Virus record (IMG/VR): IMGVR_UViG_2545824644_000015
Location: 1-38,209 of that record
Strand: one strand, 5' to 3'
Length of the DNA: 38,209 nucleotides
Origin: a virus
Taxonomy: Duplodnaviria; Heunggongvirae; Uroviricota; Caudoviricetes
The stretch's first letter is position 1, and the number at the start of each line of letters is the position of its first letter. The notes beneath the pieces were generated by a model that saw nothing but the letters and a program-made list of their open reading frames with translations, did not search any database and was not told the origin of the DNA. Positions 2,568 to 13,488 of this stretch are shown here, in pieces. A program made the position numbers and the translations under genes.

Positions 2568-5108
2568 CTAAATTATCTGCGTCACTGACAATGCTTTCTT
2601 TAACACCACTCCTCCGCTCGTTGTTGCTCCCTTTGAGTACTCAAAGGAGATATTGGCTGAAATGCCAAGATTCTCATCAGGACAATACCACCAAATTCCA
2701 ATAGGGAGCACAGATGCCTTGTCATAACTGACAGTGCGATCATACGACGACTGGTACCCATTGAAGTCATACCATTTAAACCCAGTAATTGCGTTGCCAG
2801 CAATCATGCAATCAGTGCTCATAACTACACCAAACGCATTCTTAATATTAGATGCAACTAATATGGCACTCATTGCGATATTCCTAAAGCTACATGACGT
2901 CACAGAGTATCCATTTGTATTTGCGTTTATAACTCCTATTTCTCCAAGGAAAGTCGTTGTCCTTATAGATCCATTAAAAAAAGATGTTGATTTTGTCCCT
3001 CTAAGACACACTCCCACATCAGACTCAAACGCGCTATCAGATATATCGATATACGTTGAACTTGCTGATGGATTATTCTTATAAAAGCTAACTCCGTAAT
3101 TTAGATTATTGAAATTACAACTATTAACCCTTACAGATGATACTCTTGCATCATATAAATAAAGGCCTGCCGTCATCCCTTCAAGGTGTGTGTCGTTTAA
3201 TGGAAACACTGCATTATCCCCAGCCTCGTTAGGATCATTCATTAATGTTTTAGGGTTTGTGAATTTATTTTTAATTATCGATGTAAACTCATCACAAAAA
3301 AAGTCATGTGATGCGCTATTAATTACCTTAAACCCTGAGAATCCGAATGGCTTCCCACCAGAGATTATTGCCAAACAAAATGCTTGCGCCCCACCGCGTA
3401 TTCTATATTGATTTGATTTTGATTCAAATTTAAAATTGCCTTGTAATGTTGAGTTGGTGATACAACTAAAAGAGTTACCTATGTATGATACGTTATTATT
3501 ATATGATGACGTTATGCTATAGCTGTTTACTTTATTTCCAGATATAAGAACATTATCACAAAAAAATTGAGCACATATCCCTGATTTTGATGTAACAACA
3601 TTATCAGACATTATGCTATGAATAACCATTGAGTGAAAAGTTATGCCCCAATGATCATGGCTATACGAAGTTGATATTAATGGATCGTTTATTATATTTC
3701 CAGTGCAGTTAACATAACAAACTTGCCTATATACTCCTATTGTTGAATCATTCAACCCAAGAGTTGAGCAAATGTTATCTTTAATAGAGCAAACAGAACT
3801 TGATGTGGCATAGCTAAACATAGCTTCTGGGATATTCCCTGTTAATCTATTCCTCTCGAATCTACCAGAATAACAATAATATCGCATCTCAACATGGACA
3901 TTATGGAAGTTACAACCAATCACTTCTGGCTCGATCTGAGACAAAAGCATGATTCTTCTTAGAGCATTGCTACTGCTTTTCATCGTCACACCATCTTTAA
4001 TTTTGAATGGCGTAAGGTTACCTGTTGGGAACCCAAATTTCGCAGTCCCAGCCACCTGATTTACCACCAGAGGTTGCGCCAAAATAGCCTTATTGGTAGT
4101 TGTATGACCTATAATTTTTGTTACCTGAATGAACTGAGATTGGTATCCATTCAAGTTACGTGTAAGTGCCAACCCATCTATGCTGTCAGCAGGTGTGGTG
4201 GATTTTTCCGCTTCATCAATACAGAACGGATATCCATTATCAATGACGACATATTGCCCTGTGCGATCTACACCATCGAGATATACCTCAGAGTGCCCTG
4301 CAGATGCAGGCTGAGAAAAAACTGTCATAGTTGGGAAGTCATATGGCTCAACCCTAAAATGATTACCCAATGTTATTGTGCCACGACCATATATACCTTT
4401 TGCCCCGGCTGGCGCTGTATAATCTGTTGTGGTGGTAAGGTCAGCTCCTGTAATGTTTACTTCTTCTCCGAAGTTAAACGCTGCCGTCAGTGCCTGCTCG
4501 GTTGTTACAAACCTATTGGTGTAGTTAAGGATATGGTTTAAATCATATCCGTTAAGATTCCCTACAGACTTCCAGTTTGAATCTGGTGAACTACCAGGAG
4601 GGACAGTTAATGGAACTGACAGATCACCAGTATAAATGTAATACCACCCAGTTGATGAATAGAATAGTGCCTGATATTTACTTGTTATCGTTGCACCAGA
4701 AGCAAAGGATACATTTTGCAGGCGTTTATAAACATTAAATCTAAAATTTTCATTAGCGTATAAAGAAAACTGATCTGGGTCGTACCCTAAAACATTCGGA
4801 AAATAGAACTGCTTCGCCCCATACGCATCGTACACAGCCATAGAATGGCCTTGCACAGTTACGAACTTGGCAATCTGTCCGTTATATACCGGGTAACCAG
4901 CAGCGTTAATGATGATTGGTTGAGAAACAGGAACGTGAGAACCGTCTTCGTTCTCCACATAAACCTGAATCCGGTTTTCAGGATTTACAGGGTCAGTGTC
5001 AATTTTACCGATATAAATTTCGCCATTAGCTACGGCTTTAAAAGAACGAGCCATAGTGAAGAGTTGCGAAGGCATCGATACAATCACATTAGCTGTAATG
5101 TCTGTCAT
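2568..5108 (-). CDS. Tailspike protein (P22-type head-binding N-domain fused to divergent receptor-binding domain)
   Basis: 846 aa; N-terminal ~115 aa [45 protein letters not shown]... matches the conserved P22/Sf6/HK620 tailspike head-binding domain as remembered; rest is an AT-rich, Asn/Ser/Thr-rich beta-helix-like domain. Confidence 0.9.
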
Positions 5109-5164
5109 TTAATTTGCTCCAGATACAAGGAATCGCCGCAGCGGGGCTACGGTGAATTTTGGGC

Positions 5165-5190
5165 ATAAAAAACCCAGCCGAAGCTGGGTC
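5165..5190 (-). terminator. Rho-independent terminator upstream of tailspike gene
   Basis: Plus strand aaaaaacccagccgaagctggg; on minus strand GC stem cccagc/gctggg followed by U-run. Confidence 0.6.
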
Positions 5191-5354
5191 GTTGCGTTGG
5201 TTATCTGTCAGTAGTTATGTACTGGCTGAAGGATTTGTACAAAAAAATCACCTGACGGTGGGTTAATTTTTGCATTTACCTGGGCCATATTGACTACTTA
5301 TAAAATGAGATCAATATTTAATCGCCCAATAACGGGTGTATGTTGAGGTATATC

Positions 5355-5534
5355 ATGGCGAAAAAACCAGGTGAAAACACAGGAAAAAACGGCGGAATAT
5401 ACCAAGAAGTTGGCCCACGCGGCGGTAAGAAAGACAATTTTGCCACCGTCAAGGACAACGAAAGGCTTCCACCAACAACAAAGCCAGGTCATGGCTGGGT
5501 ATTAGATAAGCGAACTCCAGACAGCAAAAAGTAA
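5355..5534 (+). CDS. Small conserved protein of unknown function (tentatively YjzC-like)
   Basis: 59 aa MAKKPGENTGKNGGIYQEVGPRGGKK...; RBS gagg 7 nt before ATG; own terminator immediately downstream. Family assignment from memory only. Confidence 0.55.
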   Translation: MAKKPGENTGKNGGIYQEVGPRGGKKDNFATVKDNERLPPTTKPGHGWVLDKRTPDSKK

Positions 5535-5540
5535 TAATCA

Positions 5541-5563
5541 AGCCGGGTCACTCCGGCTTTTTG
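5541..5563 (+). terminator. Rho-independent terminator
   Basis: agccgg-gtcact-ccggct hairpin followed by ttttt. Confidence 0.65.
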
Positions 5564-5913
5564 ATATGTCGCTCGCAGAACTCAACAAGCCTGCTCATTA
5601 AGTAGCAGTAAGTCTCGTTGGCTCTTCCTGGTTCAACATCAACACCGACCCTTGAGCAGATATCGAATGCCATGTGAGCGCACTCATGGGCAATAGTAGA
5701 TAGTTTGCCATTGAACACGCCTATCACATGCAAAACACCATTCTCGCTGCTCATTGTATGAGACGCTCCGTTGGCATCCGAGTCCTGCACGTCCACACCA
5801 AGTTTTTGATGCAGGCGTTGCCATTCTGGAAAGTCTCTACAAAACACAATTGTACCGCTCTCAAAGAGCGGAACGAGCATCTTTGGTACGTTTCCAATGT
5901 TAACTTTTTTCAT
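5548..5913 (-). CDS. Hypothetical protein with HExxH motif (possible small zinc metallopeptidase, ImmA/IrrE-like)
   Basis: ORF with internal start MKKVNIG (AGGA 4 nt upstream); contains HECAH with downstream Glu residues; no other recognisable domain. Confidence 0.4.
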   Translation of the reverse strand: MKKVNIGNVPKMLVPLFESGTIVFCRDFPEWQRLHQKLGVDVQDSDANGASHTMSSENGVLHVIGVFNGKLSTIAHECAHMAFDICSRVGVDVEPGRANETYCYLMSRLVEFCERHIKKPE

Positions 5914-5947
5914 GGTATCCTGCGCAAAACTAAGGAGGTTGGTGTGA
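5913..5947. repeat. 35-bp exact repeat copy 1 (tggtatcctgcgcaaaactaaggaggttggtgtga) carrying SD plus GTG start
   Basis: Identical to 7678..7712; contains aaggagg SD and GTG start of the downstream plus-strand gene; reverse strand supplies AGGA RBS and abuts start codon of the minus-strand HExxH gene. Confidence 0.9.
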
Positions 5948-6333
5948 AGCAATTTCTTGCTGCTATGTTCTTATTCATATCTTTTGGGGCTACAGCAGAG
6001 TGCTGGGTCGTTGGAGATATGCGCGGAATAAGCTATTCAGAACGAAATAATTTCCATCCGGAAGAAGATGGTTTTAGTGGAACATTCATCATTAAGACAA
6101 GCGGTGAAGATGCCAGCATCACATATTCTGGGACAGATGCGGGCGGCATGGCTTACAAAGCATTGTCTAAAAACTCCATCATAGGAATCGGCGCGAATGG
6201 CGAAACTCAACGCGTTATCGACTCATGGGTAATACATCCTACTGGAACAGTTTTAATGTCAAAAACCATTTCCGGTTATGGAAATATGGATTCAACCAAA
6301 GCTTTTGTTGGAAAAGTAAAAAGAAAATGTTAA
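5944..6333 (+). CDS. Secreted/periplasmic hypothetical protein (signal peptide)
   Basis: GTG start 7 nt after aaggagg; N-terminus VKQFLAAMFLFISFGATA-ECW has n/h/c signal-peptide architecture; Cys near both termini of the mature protein. Confidence 0.6.
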   Translation: MKQFLAAMFLFISFGATAECWVVGDMRGISYSERNNFHPEEDGFSGTFIIKTSGEDASITYSGTDAGGMAYKALSKNSIIGIGANGETQRVIDSWVIHPTGTVLMSKTISGYGNMDSTKAFVGKVKRKC

Positions 6334-6354
6334 TGATAGGATTATGGCCCTACA

Positions 6355-6540
6355 TCAACAGGTTACGCGCCCCTGAGTAATTCTATTGCGGATTTGCTTC
6401 TTACGGTGGTTTAGGCTGGAGAGCTTGTCTTCTGCTTCTGATATTTGCGCATCCAGATCTTTAAGTTCAAGCTCTGAAAGTCGCTGGTCAAGCAGGGTTT
6501 GGTTTAACTCAATGTTGTTCAGACGTTCTTCTATGGTCAT
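6355..6540 (-). CDS. Small coiled-coil hypothetical protein
   Basis: 61 aa; strong RBS taaggag 6 nt before ATG; heptad-like Leu/Glu-rich sequence. Confidence 0.45.
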   Translation of the reverse strand: MTIEERLNNIELNQTLLDQRLSELELKDLDAQISEAEDKLSSLNHRKKQIRNRITQGRVTC

Positions 6541-6552
6541 GATTACTCCTTA

Positions 6553-6580
6553 TAAAAAACCCACCTGAAGGTGGGTTTTA
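6553..6580. terminator. Bidirectional rho-independent terminator
   Basis: aaaaaa-cccacc-tgaa-ggtggg-tttt; A-run and T-run flank a perfect 6-bp GC stem so it can terminate either strand. Confidence 0.75.
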
Positions 6581-6583
6581 TAA

Positions 6584-7552
6584 TTAGATTTCTGGTTTCA
6601 TTCTTCCGAAAACCTTTTCTATTCCTTTTTCGTATTCTTCTCTTGTCTCACTCATCGCTGCGACACCAAGAAGCTTACCGATATGCTGACGCAAAGCCTT
6701 GACACCAATTTCAGAAAGGAACAGATGCAACTTATCAGATTGTTTTCCGTTCTCGTCTCGGCTGGCTCGAATCTGTTCAAGGATTTTACCTTTACTCTTT
6801 GCTAGCGGGGTGTATATCTGCATGTTGGTTAGCTGCCCAAAACGAATAGGTCGTCCTTTCTCTGGCCTATTCAGGCCGTACAGTCGATACCACTCCTCGT
6901 ATAGCTCATCTGGAAATTCCTTTTCATATTGACGAGCCTCTTCACGAACAAACGCTTTGAACTCGTCAATGACAGCCTGAACTTCTGGACGATAACCAGC
7001 AAGCGCATACGCAACCCCCTTAATTCCCGCCTTAGCGGAGGCATTAATAAGTCTCTGTGCTGCGGCGGCTGCCTTTAACCGTGATTGTGGTAGATCGTCA
7101 TTATCTTTGGCTTCTATTAGTGCCCTACCAATATCAACAATTGCTGTAATGTCATAACCTAACGCTTGATGAACGGTTTTAGACTTCGAAGTAAGTTGAA
7201 ATTTATAGGGATTTTCCATTTTTCGCTGCAATTCTAGATCTCGGTATTTGCTCATATACTGAGCGCCAAGCAGTTGATCTAAATCCCTGGCATGTTCACC
7301 AATCCCTAGCAACTGAGATAATCCAGTTTTCGTAACAACGACAGTTTTCGACTCGTCATCCAGTACATAACATTCAGCATCAATGCCAAAATCATCTAAA
7401 AAGTTACCACGATGAGTTGCCCTGAGAATCTTACTTTTCCATCTTGCAGCAGCTGCTTTCTTTGCTATTTCAGAACGCTGCTCTTTAGTCAGCGACTTTG
7501 CGCGAGCGATCCCGCCCTTAGCTTTCCCTTCGCCACTTTTCTTTTCAGTCAT
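6584..7552 (-). CDS. Hypothetical protein, P63C-domain-like with basic N-terminal region
   Basis: N-terminus MTEKKSGEGKAKGGIARAKSLTKEQRSEIAKKAAAARW resembles the conserved N-terminal motif of phage P63C-domain proteins (from memory); start placed at Met22 so the operator-like repeats lie upstream. Confidence 0.5.
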   Translation of the reverse strand: MTEKKSGEGKAKGGIARAKSLTKEQRSEIAKKAAAARWKSKILRATHRGNFLDDFGIDAECYVLDDESKTVVVTKTGLSQLLGIGEHARDLDQLLGAQYMSKYRDLELQRKMENPYKFQLTSKSKTVHQALGYDITAIVDIGRALIEAKDNDDLPQSRLKAAAAAQRLINASAKAGIKGVAYALAGYRPEVQAVIDEFKAFVREEARQYEKEFPDELYEEWYRLYGLNRPEKGRPIRFGQLTNMQIYTPLAKSKGKILEQIRASRDENGKQSDKLHLFLSEIGVKALRQHIGKLLGVAAMSETREEYEKGIEKVFGRMKPEI

Positions 7553-7553
7553 A

Positions 7554-7643
7554 ATGCAAGCACCTTTGTTGTGATGTATGCTTGCATTATATGCACTGTA
7601 CACACATACAAGCAAGCATAAAACAAAAACAAAATGCTTGCAT
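7554..7643. promoter_or_regulatory. Cluster of four 10-bp operator-like repeats (ATGCTTGCAT and inverse) in divergent intergenic region
   Basis: ATGCTTGCATTA at 7578 and 7634 (identical 12-mers); inverted near-copies ATGCAAGCAC at 7554 and AAGCAAGCAT at 7610. Confidence 0.5.
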
Positions 7644-7677
7644 TACAACCGCGCTACTCCAACTACACATTATCATC

Positions 7678-7712
7678 TGGTATCCTGCGCAAAACTAAGG
7701 AGGTTGGTGTGA
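7678..7712. repeat. 35-bp exact repeat copy 2 carrying SD plus GTG start
   Basis: Identical to 5913..5947. Confidence 0.9.
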
Positions 7713-8158
7713 GTGAAAAATTATCAGTTGAGATTTACAGGGATGCCAAAAAATTGATTAAAAAGGCATTGCTGATTTCCCTATCTTTGTTAGCCATTGC
7801 CATTGTTTATTTTGTGGCAGACAAAATCTATACAGAACAAAAAAATAGCAAAAAAAGCGCTGAACTGATTATGCGAGCCGAAAATGCTGTCAAGGGTAAA
7901 TCACCCATGGTATTCAACAGAACATTCCTTGGCGAAAGCTCCTCTATTTCTGTTTGGTTTATTAATGATTCAGATGGGCATATTCTTGTAGAAAAAAACG
8001 GTGAAAAATCATTGTTTTCATCAAGAGAATCCGTATACGGTGGCATCAATGCATACCATCAAGCCGGAAAGGCATGTGAAACCCTGTCTTTTTCTATGAC
8101 TTCAGGTTTTGTGATATCTGTTTCTTGCGATTTTGATGATTATTACACTAAAAAATAG
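7709..8158 (+). CDS. Membrane-anchored hypothetical protein (candidate superinfection-exclusion/moron product)
   Basis: GTG start after aaggagg inside the repeat; basic N-terminus followed by hydrophobic segment LLISLSLLAIAIVYFV; occupies the sieA/immI position of P22-like phages. Confidence 0.5.
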   Translation: MSEKLSVEIYRDAKKLIKKALLISLSLLAIAIVYFVADKIYTEQKNSKKSAELIMRAENAVKGKSPMVFNRTFLGESSSISVWFINDSDGHILVEKNGEKSLFSSRESVYGGINAYHQAGKACETLSFSMTSGFVISVSCDFDDYYTKK

Positions 8159-8175
8159 CCATCCATGGCATTTAG

Positions 8176-10008
8176 TCACTGCTGTGTTGCCTCAGTAGCA
8201 AACAGCGGTCTGATGGCATTCGCAGCATTATTTAGCGCTCTTTCATAGGCTGGCGTTCCTGCTTTGGTGTTTGCCAGACGTAAGAGCGCATTCCTGGCCA
8301 TAGGGCTTTCATAAACCCTCGACATAAGGCCAATCCCTGTTTCCCCAGCCAATAGCGCGCCTCCGGTTTTTAGGTTACCAATAACCCTTACCAAAGGCGC
8401 GAGTGTCATGCCAGTCTTCGTCACAACATTAGCCTCAGATGCTCTTTTGGTAGCATCGAGAATAGATAACATCCCCTCTATCTCTTTTCCGTTCTTCCCA
8501 CCAAATACAGTTTTAAACACCTGACCATTTGCTTGTTTTTGCAGTTTGCCAAGCTCGCTCATCATTTTCTGAGGGCTGTCACCTACCTTGTCAGCTATTT
8601 TGCTGATATATGCCGCCCTTAGCATGTCTTTACCTTTTTGATCGAGTTTCCCGTACAATCGAGCTATATCTGACCCATATTGTCCATACACAATGGTATT
8701 TACAGCCTCGGGAGTTAAATCTCCTTTGTTTAGAACGTTTTTAAGGCGCGTTTGAGTTGCATGTGTTGCCATTTTTGCATAATCAGCTTTTCCCGCTCTC
8801 CATGCTGAAGCATCTTTTGGGCTAAGTCCTTTCGCTATAGATTTACTAAGGCTATTGGTTAGCGAGTTATAGACCCTGTCGACCATTGTTTGCGACATTG
8901 ATGGCAGAACTGTACGATCGCCTTTTACGTCAATGCGGAACTGAGTTCTCAGCTTATCAAGTAACTCAAAGGCATCATCTCCATTTGTTATCTCCTGAAT
9001 GGCATTCTTATAATCATTAAGCGCAGAAATGGTCTGGGTGTCAGAAACACCTTTAAGTTTCCCAAGTTCGTTTACTGCTCCGTCGATAGCTCTTATGGCG
9101 CCACTTGTATCAACTGGCTTTCCAACCATTCTTCCTGACAGGCTGTTTAGTTTTGACTTGGCTAACGATTTTTCCCTTGCAACGCCTGACTTTAGACTAT
9201 CAACGACTACAGATGGATCGTAGTCGCCGTATTTTTCGGTGAAGCGATTAACAAGCTTGGTTCTGGCATCCTGCTGTGCGGATCTCATTGGTCCAGTACC
9301 AGCTATGACTCCTTCTGAGTAACCCTGCAGTTGATTGCCAAGTTTTGTTTTTGGAGGAACTACATCCGATGTCATAACTGGTACATCTGCCGCAGCGGCA
9401 CGCTTGAGCAATTGCTGATCTGCTGGTGATATTTCGCCACGAACAGCAGTAATTCCACGCCCTATTCCCTTTGCTGCTGCGGAAAGAACCCCCTGAGCGG
9501 CAAGGTTAACTCCGGCATTTTTAGCTGCATTTTGTGCGAAATCGCCTTTCTGATTTGCGGCCTCTGCCAGTGAGCCAATAGCCATGCTTCCTGCCGTTCC
9601 AACTCCTGGAACTAAATACCCACCAATTGTTTCACCGGCTTGCGCGTAGGGGTCTGTCGGTCGATCGACAGGGCGATAAACATCATCCAAAACCTTGGGG
9701 CCACCAAGCCCTTGGCTGATTGCATTAATCAGACTTGCGCCACCCTGCAATACGTCAAATGGTATGTTTACCAGACCGCGACCAGCCTGCTCTGCAATTT
9801 GCCCTGCACTTTGACCACCTGTGAGCCAATCGCCAGCTTGTTGCATCAATGATAGTTCTTCACGTGCTGGTTCATTATTGGCCTGATTAACTGTTTGTTG
9901 CTGAACAGCCTGACCAGCAAAATACTCATCAATGGCGGTGCCAATATCTTCCGTGCTCGTACCATCAGGGAAGGTAAATGTCTTACCGTTTGCAGTTACT
10001 TTCATCAT
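8176..10008 (-). CDS. Ejection (DNA transfer) protein, P22 gp16-like
   Basis: 610 aa, Gly/Ala-rich; position and size match P22 gp16; N-terminus [22 protein letters not shown]. Confidence 0.8.
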
Positions 10009-11480
10009 TCCACCGTAAATTGAATGCCTGATTTTGAGGTATATGATCCGGATTGACTCTGCTGCTGTTGGGTATTTGTCGGTTGTTGGCTATTGCTCTG
10101 TTGTTGACTATTTGCAGCACTTGAAACCACCAAAGCATCATAAACGCGACCAGACTGACCACGTAATGAGTTATATTGGCCCTGCATTTTTCGCATTTTT
10201 GTTTCAGTAGCAGCCTTGGAATCACCGGGCTGAGGCAGGTACATTTTGGAATACTCCTGCATCTCTGGCAGAGTAATTGCTGCACCTGTTTCTGGGCGCA
10301 AAATTGCATACAATGCGTCTCTCGCATTTACCATATATTGCTGCTCCGCTGGTGATAGGCTTAAATTTGCAATAGTCCCATCACCAAGAGAGCGATTTAT
10401 TAATGCAACTCGCTTAGGGTCAATGCTTTTACTAAGCTGATTCATTGAGTCCATTGAATCTTTTAATCGCAAAGCAAATCCTGCCGCCTTCTTGGAACCC
10501 TCATTAGCCTTATCTATGATGCTTTGCGCTTGTGGCAAGCTAATTGGTTTAATGCCATCACCAGATATAGGTTGGTTTAGTTTTCCGGCTTCCTCGCTGC
10601 CATCGGTGTAATACTTAGTTACCGAGCCATCAGGATTGGTTTCAACCTTAAGTAATTTCTTAGCATTGGGATTAATTCCCGCCGCTGCCGCAAATGCCGC
10701 TGCACCATCTGGATCCGCCTTTAACATTTGCGCGTACTGATTATAATTCTGCATTGCGGCTGTTGGTGCATATGCTGACGTTAACGCATTTGCTCGGCTA
10801 ATATCCTGCCCTCTCGCCTGAAGTGCTTCTCCAGCCTTATTGCTGCGGATTGTCTCTGCCAGCCTGCCTCGGTCAATTTCACGACCAGCCATCTTATCCT
10901 GAACAGCAAACGCCTTTTCTGGTCCAAGCGCACCGAGAGACATAGTAGTCAGCATGTGTGATAGCTGCTCTGGATTCTGGATACCTGTCTGAATCATCCA
11001 GTCAGCATTCGCACCAACGCGATTTAACCTGTCCTTGTTGTCAGTAATGAATTTACTGTAGGCTTCCGGTCCCTGAGAAAGAGCGACGTTAGCCCTCATG
11101 GCTAAATCGCCCATATCGTTGCGTTGCTGCTCATTAAGACCGGAAAACGCCTGTTGTGCCTGCGCAACAAACGCTGGATTTTCCTTGGCAAACTTAAATA
11201 GTCCCGATGGATCACCAGAAGCCCATGCATCAGCATGAACCTTATTGAACGCATTAATCGCTTTCTGTTGCTGTTCCTGCTTATAAATATCAGCAACTCC
11301 AGCCAGACCACGTAACGCGGTCAGACCAACGTTATTTGCACCTGAGCGAGCCAGTTCATTGTTTTCGCGGATCAGACCAAGCGTTGCGTTAATGTCGCTT
11401 GCCTTTGGCGCATTCTCATTTTGCGTACCGATGCCAGCCAGAAAACCACCAGAATTAATACCCTGTTGCCACGTAGCCAT
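10005..11480 (-). CDS. Ejection protein, P22 gp20-like
   Basis: 491 aa, Gln/Ala-rich; gene order and size. Confidence 0.75.
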
Positions 11481-12643: not shown

Positions 12644-13488
12644 TGCTCCGCGATTATCTTGATGGTTGTGGCAGTAAACGCCGCACCATTTGACTGGATG
12701 GTTAACGTACTGCCATTTGTGGCAAGAAATCCGTCTTTATCCACGCTGAAGAACGTAGCTAACAGGATGTTGTCGGTTGTTGTCGCCGCATTACGACTGC
12801 TAACCAGTGTGTCAGGAACAGAGCCGGAAAATGTTAGCTGCATTGACCTGTTGGTGGTTCCGCTGGGCCACGTCCCGACGATCGACAGCTTGAAGAACAA
12901 GGTTTTGTTCTCGTTGAACACAACCATCTTGTTGTTAACAGTGTCAAAGAATGGTGCCAACGTCCCGGATGACGGCGTGAGCGTTTTCAGCAGGCTAACA
13001 AGGTTGGTCGGCGCTGTCGGGATGGTTACAGATACACCAGAGTAAACAACCTCTGACTTCTTGCGTGTGGTTGCATACTCCAGAGCATCAATGCGCGTTT
13101 CATGGTCTGAAACCTGCGACTCCAGCGACTGAACTCTGGTATCAAGCGACGCAATATCGCTTTCATTCTGAGCGATTCGCGTTTCATGTTCCTGAAGAGT
13201 TGATTCTGCCTGGCTGATTCGCTCCTCATGATTAACAAGCGTTGCTTCCGCAGCAGAAATTCGCTGCTCATGGTCAGCGAGAATCACATCCTGCTCATCG
13301 TTCCTGACTTGTGCATCATAAGCGCCCTGTCCGGCCTCGTTGGCCTTGCTAGCCACATTACCAACATCAGTACCCTGTGCAATAACGTACAACAGATATG
13401 ACTGCGAGAAGATATTGCGTGGAAGGACTGATGTGTCGAGTCGTGTAGCCTGAATGATTACCGGCACATTGAGATTCGAATCCGCCAT
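12640..13488 (-). CDS. Tail needle protein (gp26-like, Sf6-type with C-terminal knob)
   Basis: 282 aa; trimeric coiled-coil heptads ([37 protein letters not shown]) followed by a C-terminal globular domain. Confidence 0.85.

Follow-up and report, generated by a model that had tools for sequence, protein, structure and literature searches.

The 38,209-nt window analysed here (IMG/VR record IMGVR_UViG_2545824644_000015, positions 1 to 38,209) raises the question of why four copies of a 10-bp motif are crowded between a P63C-domain gene and a divergently transcribed gene, and which protein recognizes them. The initial annotation had placed the motifs at 7554, 7578, 7610 and 7634, and all four copies were found at exactly these positions (sites A, B, C and D). 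Comparison of the locus with its relatives suggested that the motifs are probably the operators of a self-contained, single-gene prophage cassette that is negatively autoregulated by its own product, the P63C protein.

Each site was near-palindromic, with the form ATGC-WW-GCAT (ATGCWWGCAT). The array as a whole formed a 34-nt imperfect inverted repeat (7552-7585 and 7612-7645) that was 79% complementary, with its centre near 7598. In the window, perfect TGCWWGCA sequences were present only at 7555, 7579 and 7635, and the 7-mer core, GCAAGCA or TGCTTGC, occurred in 12 copies. A group of at least four cores within 90 bp was not obtained in any of 2000 first-order Markov shuffles; the maximum was three cores, which was reached in 8 of the 2000. 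The site cluster is not a product of chance. Dispersed extragenic (REP-like) repeats were also ruled out, as the perfect sites in the window were confined to this locus. Outside the window, the sites occurred only upstream of homologous genes.

The conservation of the array was then compared across phages and genomic contexts. The 85 bp upstream of the P63C gene were 79% identical to the stretch preceding ST104 orf23, a P63C gene located elsewhere, between the cI terminator, which it directly follows, and gene 24; there, all four sites were kept and the spacers had diverged. Retrieval by protein sequence detected the array before homologues in Klebsiella and Phaseolibacter genomes and in about 74 IMG/VR loci, and it was also present in high-GC contigs whose proteins were about 40-55% identical. 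The order in all these loci was D'(GCAAGCA)-C'(TGCTTGC)-B'(GCAAGCA)-A'(TGCTTGC)-ATG, where the prime denotes a site read in gene orientation. A distant set of 80 relatives, 38-59% identical to a high-GC member, was retrieved by protein and served as the unbiased set. Further high-GC contigs were added by a DNA-pattern scan of IMG/VR; the scan gave mostly single chance hits, and only loci with at least three sites were used. Among 69 unique four-site loci, the end of the A' core lay -1 to +2 nt from the ATG, the D-C spacing had a mode of 24 bp (range 14-24), the B-A spacing had a mode of 24 bp (20-22 in distant lineages), and the C-B spacing varied from 11 to 33 bp. The 7-bp core was invariant across loci and the spacers were free. 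GCAAGCA was found no more than 160 nt upstream in 86 of 87 unique loci whose protein carries a canonical N-terminal module (described below), and 94% of these 87 loci had at least two 6-mer cores, compared with 0.8% of 594 coding control chunks.

The cassette recurred downstream of cI, where it directly followed the conserved cI terminator GGTCGCAGAAATGCGGCC-T6 in the slot between cI and N/24 (loci L002 (ST104 13272-13356), L003, L027, L031, L057, L061, L063, L066 and L067). This slot carries accessory genes in other lambdoid phages. In another group (L032, 2763-2837), the cassette was located about 60 nt after a tRNA-Arg(tct) gene. The cassette was present in 46 of 5426 complete E. coli genomes.

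The cross-locus conservation also predicted a sigma-70 promoter of the P63C gene embedded in the array. The -10 matrix over the 69 unique loci was T58 A61 T51 A54 A65 T69, which gives TATAAT adjoining B', the last T being fixed by the site definition (a hexamer ending at the T before the B' core). In most of these loci, TTGCTT, TTGACA or TTGCAT was found 17-18 nt upstream of the -10 element, in or next to C'. Relative to this predicted promoter, site B would cover about -8 to +2, site A about +17 to +26 of the transcript, including the junction of the Shine-Dalgarno (SD) sequence and ATG, and site D about -55 to -64 (near -60). A simple promoter scanner gave no P63C promoter, because TTGCTT scores only 3/6; the assignment rests on conservation between loci. 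In ST104-type loci, the terminator abuts D', and therefore no promoter is possible further upstream. Repeated sites of conserved sequence that lie over the promoter core of the gene they regulate are the mark of an autoregulatory operator array, and this arrangement was found across the 69 loci. Locus L034 (7 contigs) and L070 kept only sites B' and A'; D' was seemingly fused to B', as if the inter-repeat region had been deleted. This deletion removes the predicted -35 and -10 elements, so the P63C gene may be silent there or read from elsewhere.

The product of the P63C gene matched Pfam family PF10546 over residues 199-286 with 52.7 bits against a cut-off of 26.1, and it had at least 1682 homologues, all unnamed or annotated as 'P63C domain-containing'. 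The proteins from all site-bearing genes carried a basic module at the N-terminus with the consensus K/R followed by GGxARAxxL(S/T)xExRxxIAxKAAxxRW, in which G13, G14, R17, R26, A30, R37 and W38 were invariant. In the AlphaFold2 model, the module was predicted as two helices (residues 11-20 and 23-39) with moderate confidence (predicted local distance difference test, pLDDT, 54-71). A beta/alpha domain (43-134), modelled with confidence, comes next, and the C-terminal part, which includes P63C, is helical.

The sites were present where the protein has the N-terminal module and absent from module-less relatives, and this was observed in two protein families. Six relatives without the module, which start directly at the conserved KATHxG segment, had no sites (L307, L315, L330, L334, L335 and L340). 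In a family without a Pfam P63C match, one member (L167/L360) had the module and three sites, and none of its 15 readable module-less relatives had sites; L361, which has a truncated module remnant, also had none. The proteins of L071-L078 were 54% identical overall, with the first approximately 40 aa identical and the upstream region near-identical to the window; therefore, module and array travel as a unit. Genes for proteins with a different second helix (..KMVxAxxAK..) had ACGTGCA-type inverted repeats around the -10 element (L324, L346 and L349-354), and an altered module helix in L341 and L343 was accompanied by TAAGCAT-type inverted repeats around the -10 element. Because the presence and absence of sites track those of the module in two families, the P63C gene's own basic N-terminus is the best candidate for the binder. 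The initial annotation had named this N-terminus as a possible DNA-binding element, which this co-occurrence favours, and had also considered the product of a 61-aa open reading frame (ORF). The latter found no support: the ORF lies beyond a terminator and is not conserved as a neighbour, and its product is a coiled-coil protein.

In the mechanism that we favour, the P63C protein, presumably as a dimer or higher oligomer, would bind the palindromic ATGCWWGCAT sites through its basic N-terminal module of about 30 aa. With B and C occupied, RNA polymerase would be kept out, which would presumably result in negative autoregulation, and sites A and D would add cooperativity. The sites form two pairs, D-C and B-A. 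Within each pair the distance is about two helical turns (24 bp here, 20-24 bp elsewhere), and between the pairs it varies.

Inverted repeats may also act as structures. The B'/A' pair could form a hairpin in the 5' untranslated region (5'UTR) that controls translation or mRNA stability and the D'/C' pair a terminator or insulator, or the repeats could form DNA cruciforms. If transcribed, B'/A' would give a hairpin of -16.4 kcal/mol (z = -4.6) whose loop holds the SD sequence and whose stem is immediately followed by the AUG, and the whole array region folds at -33 kcal/mol. However, arrays of palindromes fold well by construction, and the core pairs showed no compensatory change over the 69 unique loci: all variation breaks pairing, with A.A or T.T at the centre in 6-13 loci. 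Furthermore, the orientation of the central AA/TT was flipped in several lineages (L314, L316, L322 and L280), which converts the inverted repeats into direct repeats. The conserved -10 element adjoining B' puts the predicted start at the end of B', so that B' would be outside the mRNA. No Rfam family reached threshold on the array, which had only generic hairpin matches far below threshold. A structural role is therefore very unlikely. An invariant core, palindromic units, free spacers and the lack of compensatory changes together point to protein-binding sites rather than hairpins. The operator-like character proposed in the initial annotation is thus supported on comparative grounds, as the sequence of the sites is conserved and that of the spacers is not, no covariation was detected and a conserved promoter is overlapped.

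If the motifs are protein-binding sites, they may serve as operators for another trans-acting factor, either a host regulator or a phage protein such as the prophage repressor. Small stand-alone proteins with the N-terminal module lack these sites, and the ST104-type cassette lies directly behind cI, both of which would fit such a factor. We consider it unlikely, since the array follows the gene through phage backbones, positions and hosts from enterics to high-GC bacteria, is gone when the module is absent, has no further perfect site in the 38-kb prophage and is accompanied by no conserved neighbour gene that could encode a partner. The range of hosts and contexts makes a host factor in particular unlikely. 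The prophage repressor was rejected as the binder because the immC operators are P22 c2-like and unrelated, and the consensus sequences of sigma-54, CII (TTGC-N6-TTGC), LexA, CRP and similar factors, compared by eye, did not fit. It is also improbable to a high degree that the P63C protein binds the sites but mainly activates or switches the divergent gene in the sieA position, or its own promoter, instead of being a simple autorepressor. Upstream of the divergent gene, a fair candidate -10 element (TATCAT) was present on the plus strand, with no recognizable -35 element, and site D would be centred near -44 of this putative promoter, which would be the position of a class II activator; the array could also act on the divergent gene. 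However, ST104-type, tRNA-adjacent and high-GC contexts without a divergent gene still keep all four sites, and B and C lie over core promoter elements of the P63C gene, where sites for repression are typically found.

Several points weigh against autoregulation through the N-terminal module. The counts exaggerate the number of independent cases, since many loci are closely related, and the motif itself had been used to retrieve part of the distant set (L079-L198). The module had no Pfam or NCBIfam match among known DNA-binding families and no match among solved structures in the PDB, and the AlphaFold2 confidence for it was moderate. The beta/alpha domain (aa 43-134) could contribute to recognition or itself provide it. 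Small stand-alone module genes had GCAAGCA upstream in 0 of 4 cases (five contigs, L381-L385, two of which carry the same gene), so that the module alone does not imply an ATGCWWGCAT operator.

The module was also found elsewhere, in about 310 cluster representatives, mostly proteins of 45-120 aa with usually two (1-6) tandem copies. Among the proteins P0122-P0269, it was fused to a Cro/C1 helix-turn-helix (HTH) domain (P0126), a vWA domain (P0229) and a repeat protein (P0228). The module is not represented by any Pfam or NCBIfam model, with only a sub-threshold LEA_5 resemblance detected, and residues 1-135 of the P63C protein had no sequence or fold match to HTH, ribbon-helix-helix (RHH), AbrB or KilA-N/Bro-N proteins. 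We tentatively suggest that this segment of about 30 aa may be a portable element that binds DNA sequence-specifically and has not been described before. With the array, it might form an autoregulation unit whose 7-bp code has stayed the same in phages from enterobacteria to high-GC proteobacteria, and which holds a possibly harmful P63C effector at a fixed low level.

The locus was compared with known regulatory systems. The P22 immI region (Pant/Pmnt, the Arc and Mnt operators, ant and sar) is found at the same genomic location, flanked by gene 16/sieA and the tailspike gene, and likewise has divergent genes and palindromic operators over promoters in a short intergenic region. Unlike immI, the window has no arc, mnt, ant or sar homologue, and the operator sequences are unrelated: P22 immI gave no match to 7554-7645, and the only similarity to P22 around the array was the sieA leader at 7678-7711. 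As its defining genes and operators are absent, this is not a P22 immI-type circuit. In phage vB_EcoP-611R6, a 97% identical cassette region was located beside a complete arc/ant set, which indicates an added cassette and not a replacement immunity system. The proposal in the initial annotation of an immunity-like circuit was therefore not sustained, given that no Ant, Arc or Mnt homologue was found, the prophage has no such sites outside the array, its immC operators bear no relation to them and the cassette is located in non-immunity contexts elsewhere.

Classical multi-operator autoregulated units, such as lambda cI at OR, LexA and type II antitoxin operons, also have palindromic sites over the -35 element, the -10/+1 region and the leader. 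As in those units, the sites here were paired about two helical turns apart, which suggests cooperative binding, and the candidate regulator is encoded immediately downstream. The differences are that the candidate element here is a basic two-helix module of about 30 aa without an HTH, RHH or AbrB match, that it is fused to a large protein, and that there is no partner gene. Consisting of one gene that has a promoter and a terminator of its own, the cassette also resembles the prophage morons in the cI-N and sieA hot spots (rexAB, sieB and sieA), and it was found in both the cI-downstream slot (ST104 orf23) and the sieA/immI slot, exchanged among phages. BstA of BTP1 is another such prophage accessory gene product. 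Unlike these morons, P63C proteins have no known defence or exclusion function, and the P63C protein had no match among the PADLOC profiles of anti-phage defence systems. It also had no NCBIfam match and no PDB sequence match. Literature searches on P63C, ST104 ORF23 and the motif gave nothing relevant, and no published description of the array was found.

The window represents a nearly complete P22-like (Lederbergvirus) prophage in reverse reading direction, and in comparison with the P22 reference layout the array falls where P22 has sieA and immI. Six small ORFs sit between the tailspike gene and gene 16; no Arc, Mnt or Ant family matched any ORF in 5109-8175 (Pfam, PHROGs), and no other Pfam-recognizable regulator was found between these two genes. 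The P63C gene starts at ATG 7552, which is preceded by an SD sequence and at which the N-termini of the homologues also begin; on the same grounds, the 343-aa ORF from TTG 7615 was rejected as the gene model. With this start, the motifs are truly intergenic and site A adjoins the start codon. The divergent-gene layout of the initial annotation was thus correct in placing the motifs between genes and is revised in the length of the P63C protein, which is 322 aa and not 343 aa. The divergent gene most likely starts at GTG 7709, with AAGGAGG at 7697-7703 before it; this start was preferred to ATG 7634, which is inside site D. Downstream of the P63C gene, no conserved partner ORF was found across loci. 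The coordinates of all features are listed in Table 1.

Table 1. Features of the P63C locus and its surroundings in the window.
Feature	Position	Strand	Sequence or remarks
Site A	7554-7563		ATGCAAGCAC; A' (gene orientation) GTGCTTGCAT; ends 1 nt before ATG; overlaps the SD-to-start segment
Site B	7578-7587 (to 7589 as ATGCTTGCATTA)		10-mer ATGCTTGCAT; B' TAATGCAAGCAT
Site C	7610-7619		AAGCAAGCAT; C' ATGCTTGCTT; holds the predicted -35 hexamer
Site D	7634-7643 (to 7645 as ATGCTTGCATTA)		10-mer ATGCTTGCAT; D' TAATGCAAGCAT; distal site
Predicted -10 hexamer	7586-7591	minus	TATAAT; last two bases are the first two of site B
Predicted -35 hexamer	7610-7615	minus	TTGCTT; inside site C; 18-nt spacer to -10
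Predicted transcription start	7579	minus	Placed about 7 nt past the -10 hexamer; 5'UTR of about 27 nt
SD sequence of P63C gene	7561-7567	minus	AAAGGTG (AAGG 7563-7566); AGG/GAG kept before A' in homologous loci
P63C-domain gene	6584-7552	minus	322 aa; Pfam PF10546, E = 6.8e-14; phrog_2384
N-terminal basic module (aa 10-38)	7439-7525	minus	KAKGGIARAKSLTKEQRSEIAKKAAAARW; proposed DNA-binding element
Terminator-like hairpin	6553-6582	bidirectional	ACCCACCT..AGGTGGGT with A/T-run flanks; closes the P63C cassette
Possible -10 with sieA-type leader and SD of divergent gene	7671-7708	plus	TATCAT 7671-7676; putative promoter
Divergent membrane-type gene, sieA position	7709-8158	plus	149 aa; no family match
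Tailspike gene	2568-5108	minus	
Gene-16- and gene-20-like injection proteins	8176-11480	minus	
immC	near 31.4-32.7 kb		

Some further observations concern the neighbouring small genes. Three related terminator-like hairpins (AAAAAACCCACCTGAAGGTGGGTT type) were located between small accessory genes (5164-5190, 5238-5264 and 6551-6577), which suggests that each of these genes is an independent cassette. An exact 35-nt direct repeat, TGGTATCCTGCGCAAAACTAAGGAGGTTGGTGTGA, was present at 5913-5947 and 7678-7712 and corresponds to the P22 sieA leader, SD and GTG. The first copy belongs to a complete PsieA-like promoter and leader (5870-5947) in front of a 129-aa lipoprotein-like gene; the copy at 7678 has the leader alone. 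In IMG/VR, the sieA leader also precedes many different genes in immI-type loci, in the manner of a cassette-exchange linker.

Autorepression through operators over a promoter is an ordinary principle in itself. The novelty is moderate: the regulatory logic is known, and what is new is an undescribed candidate DNA-binding module together with a deeply conserved 10-bp site on a widespread family. The analysis also singles out a short basic module that lacks curation and recurs in hundreds of small proteins; this module is a candidate for a nucleic-acid-binding motif. Prophages commonly encode P63C-domain proteins, yet there is almost no literature on them. A promoter-operator array that is conserved and has a defined 10-bp site would offer a concrete handle on these proteins, as it predicts a binder, its site and the regulatory logic.
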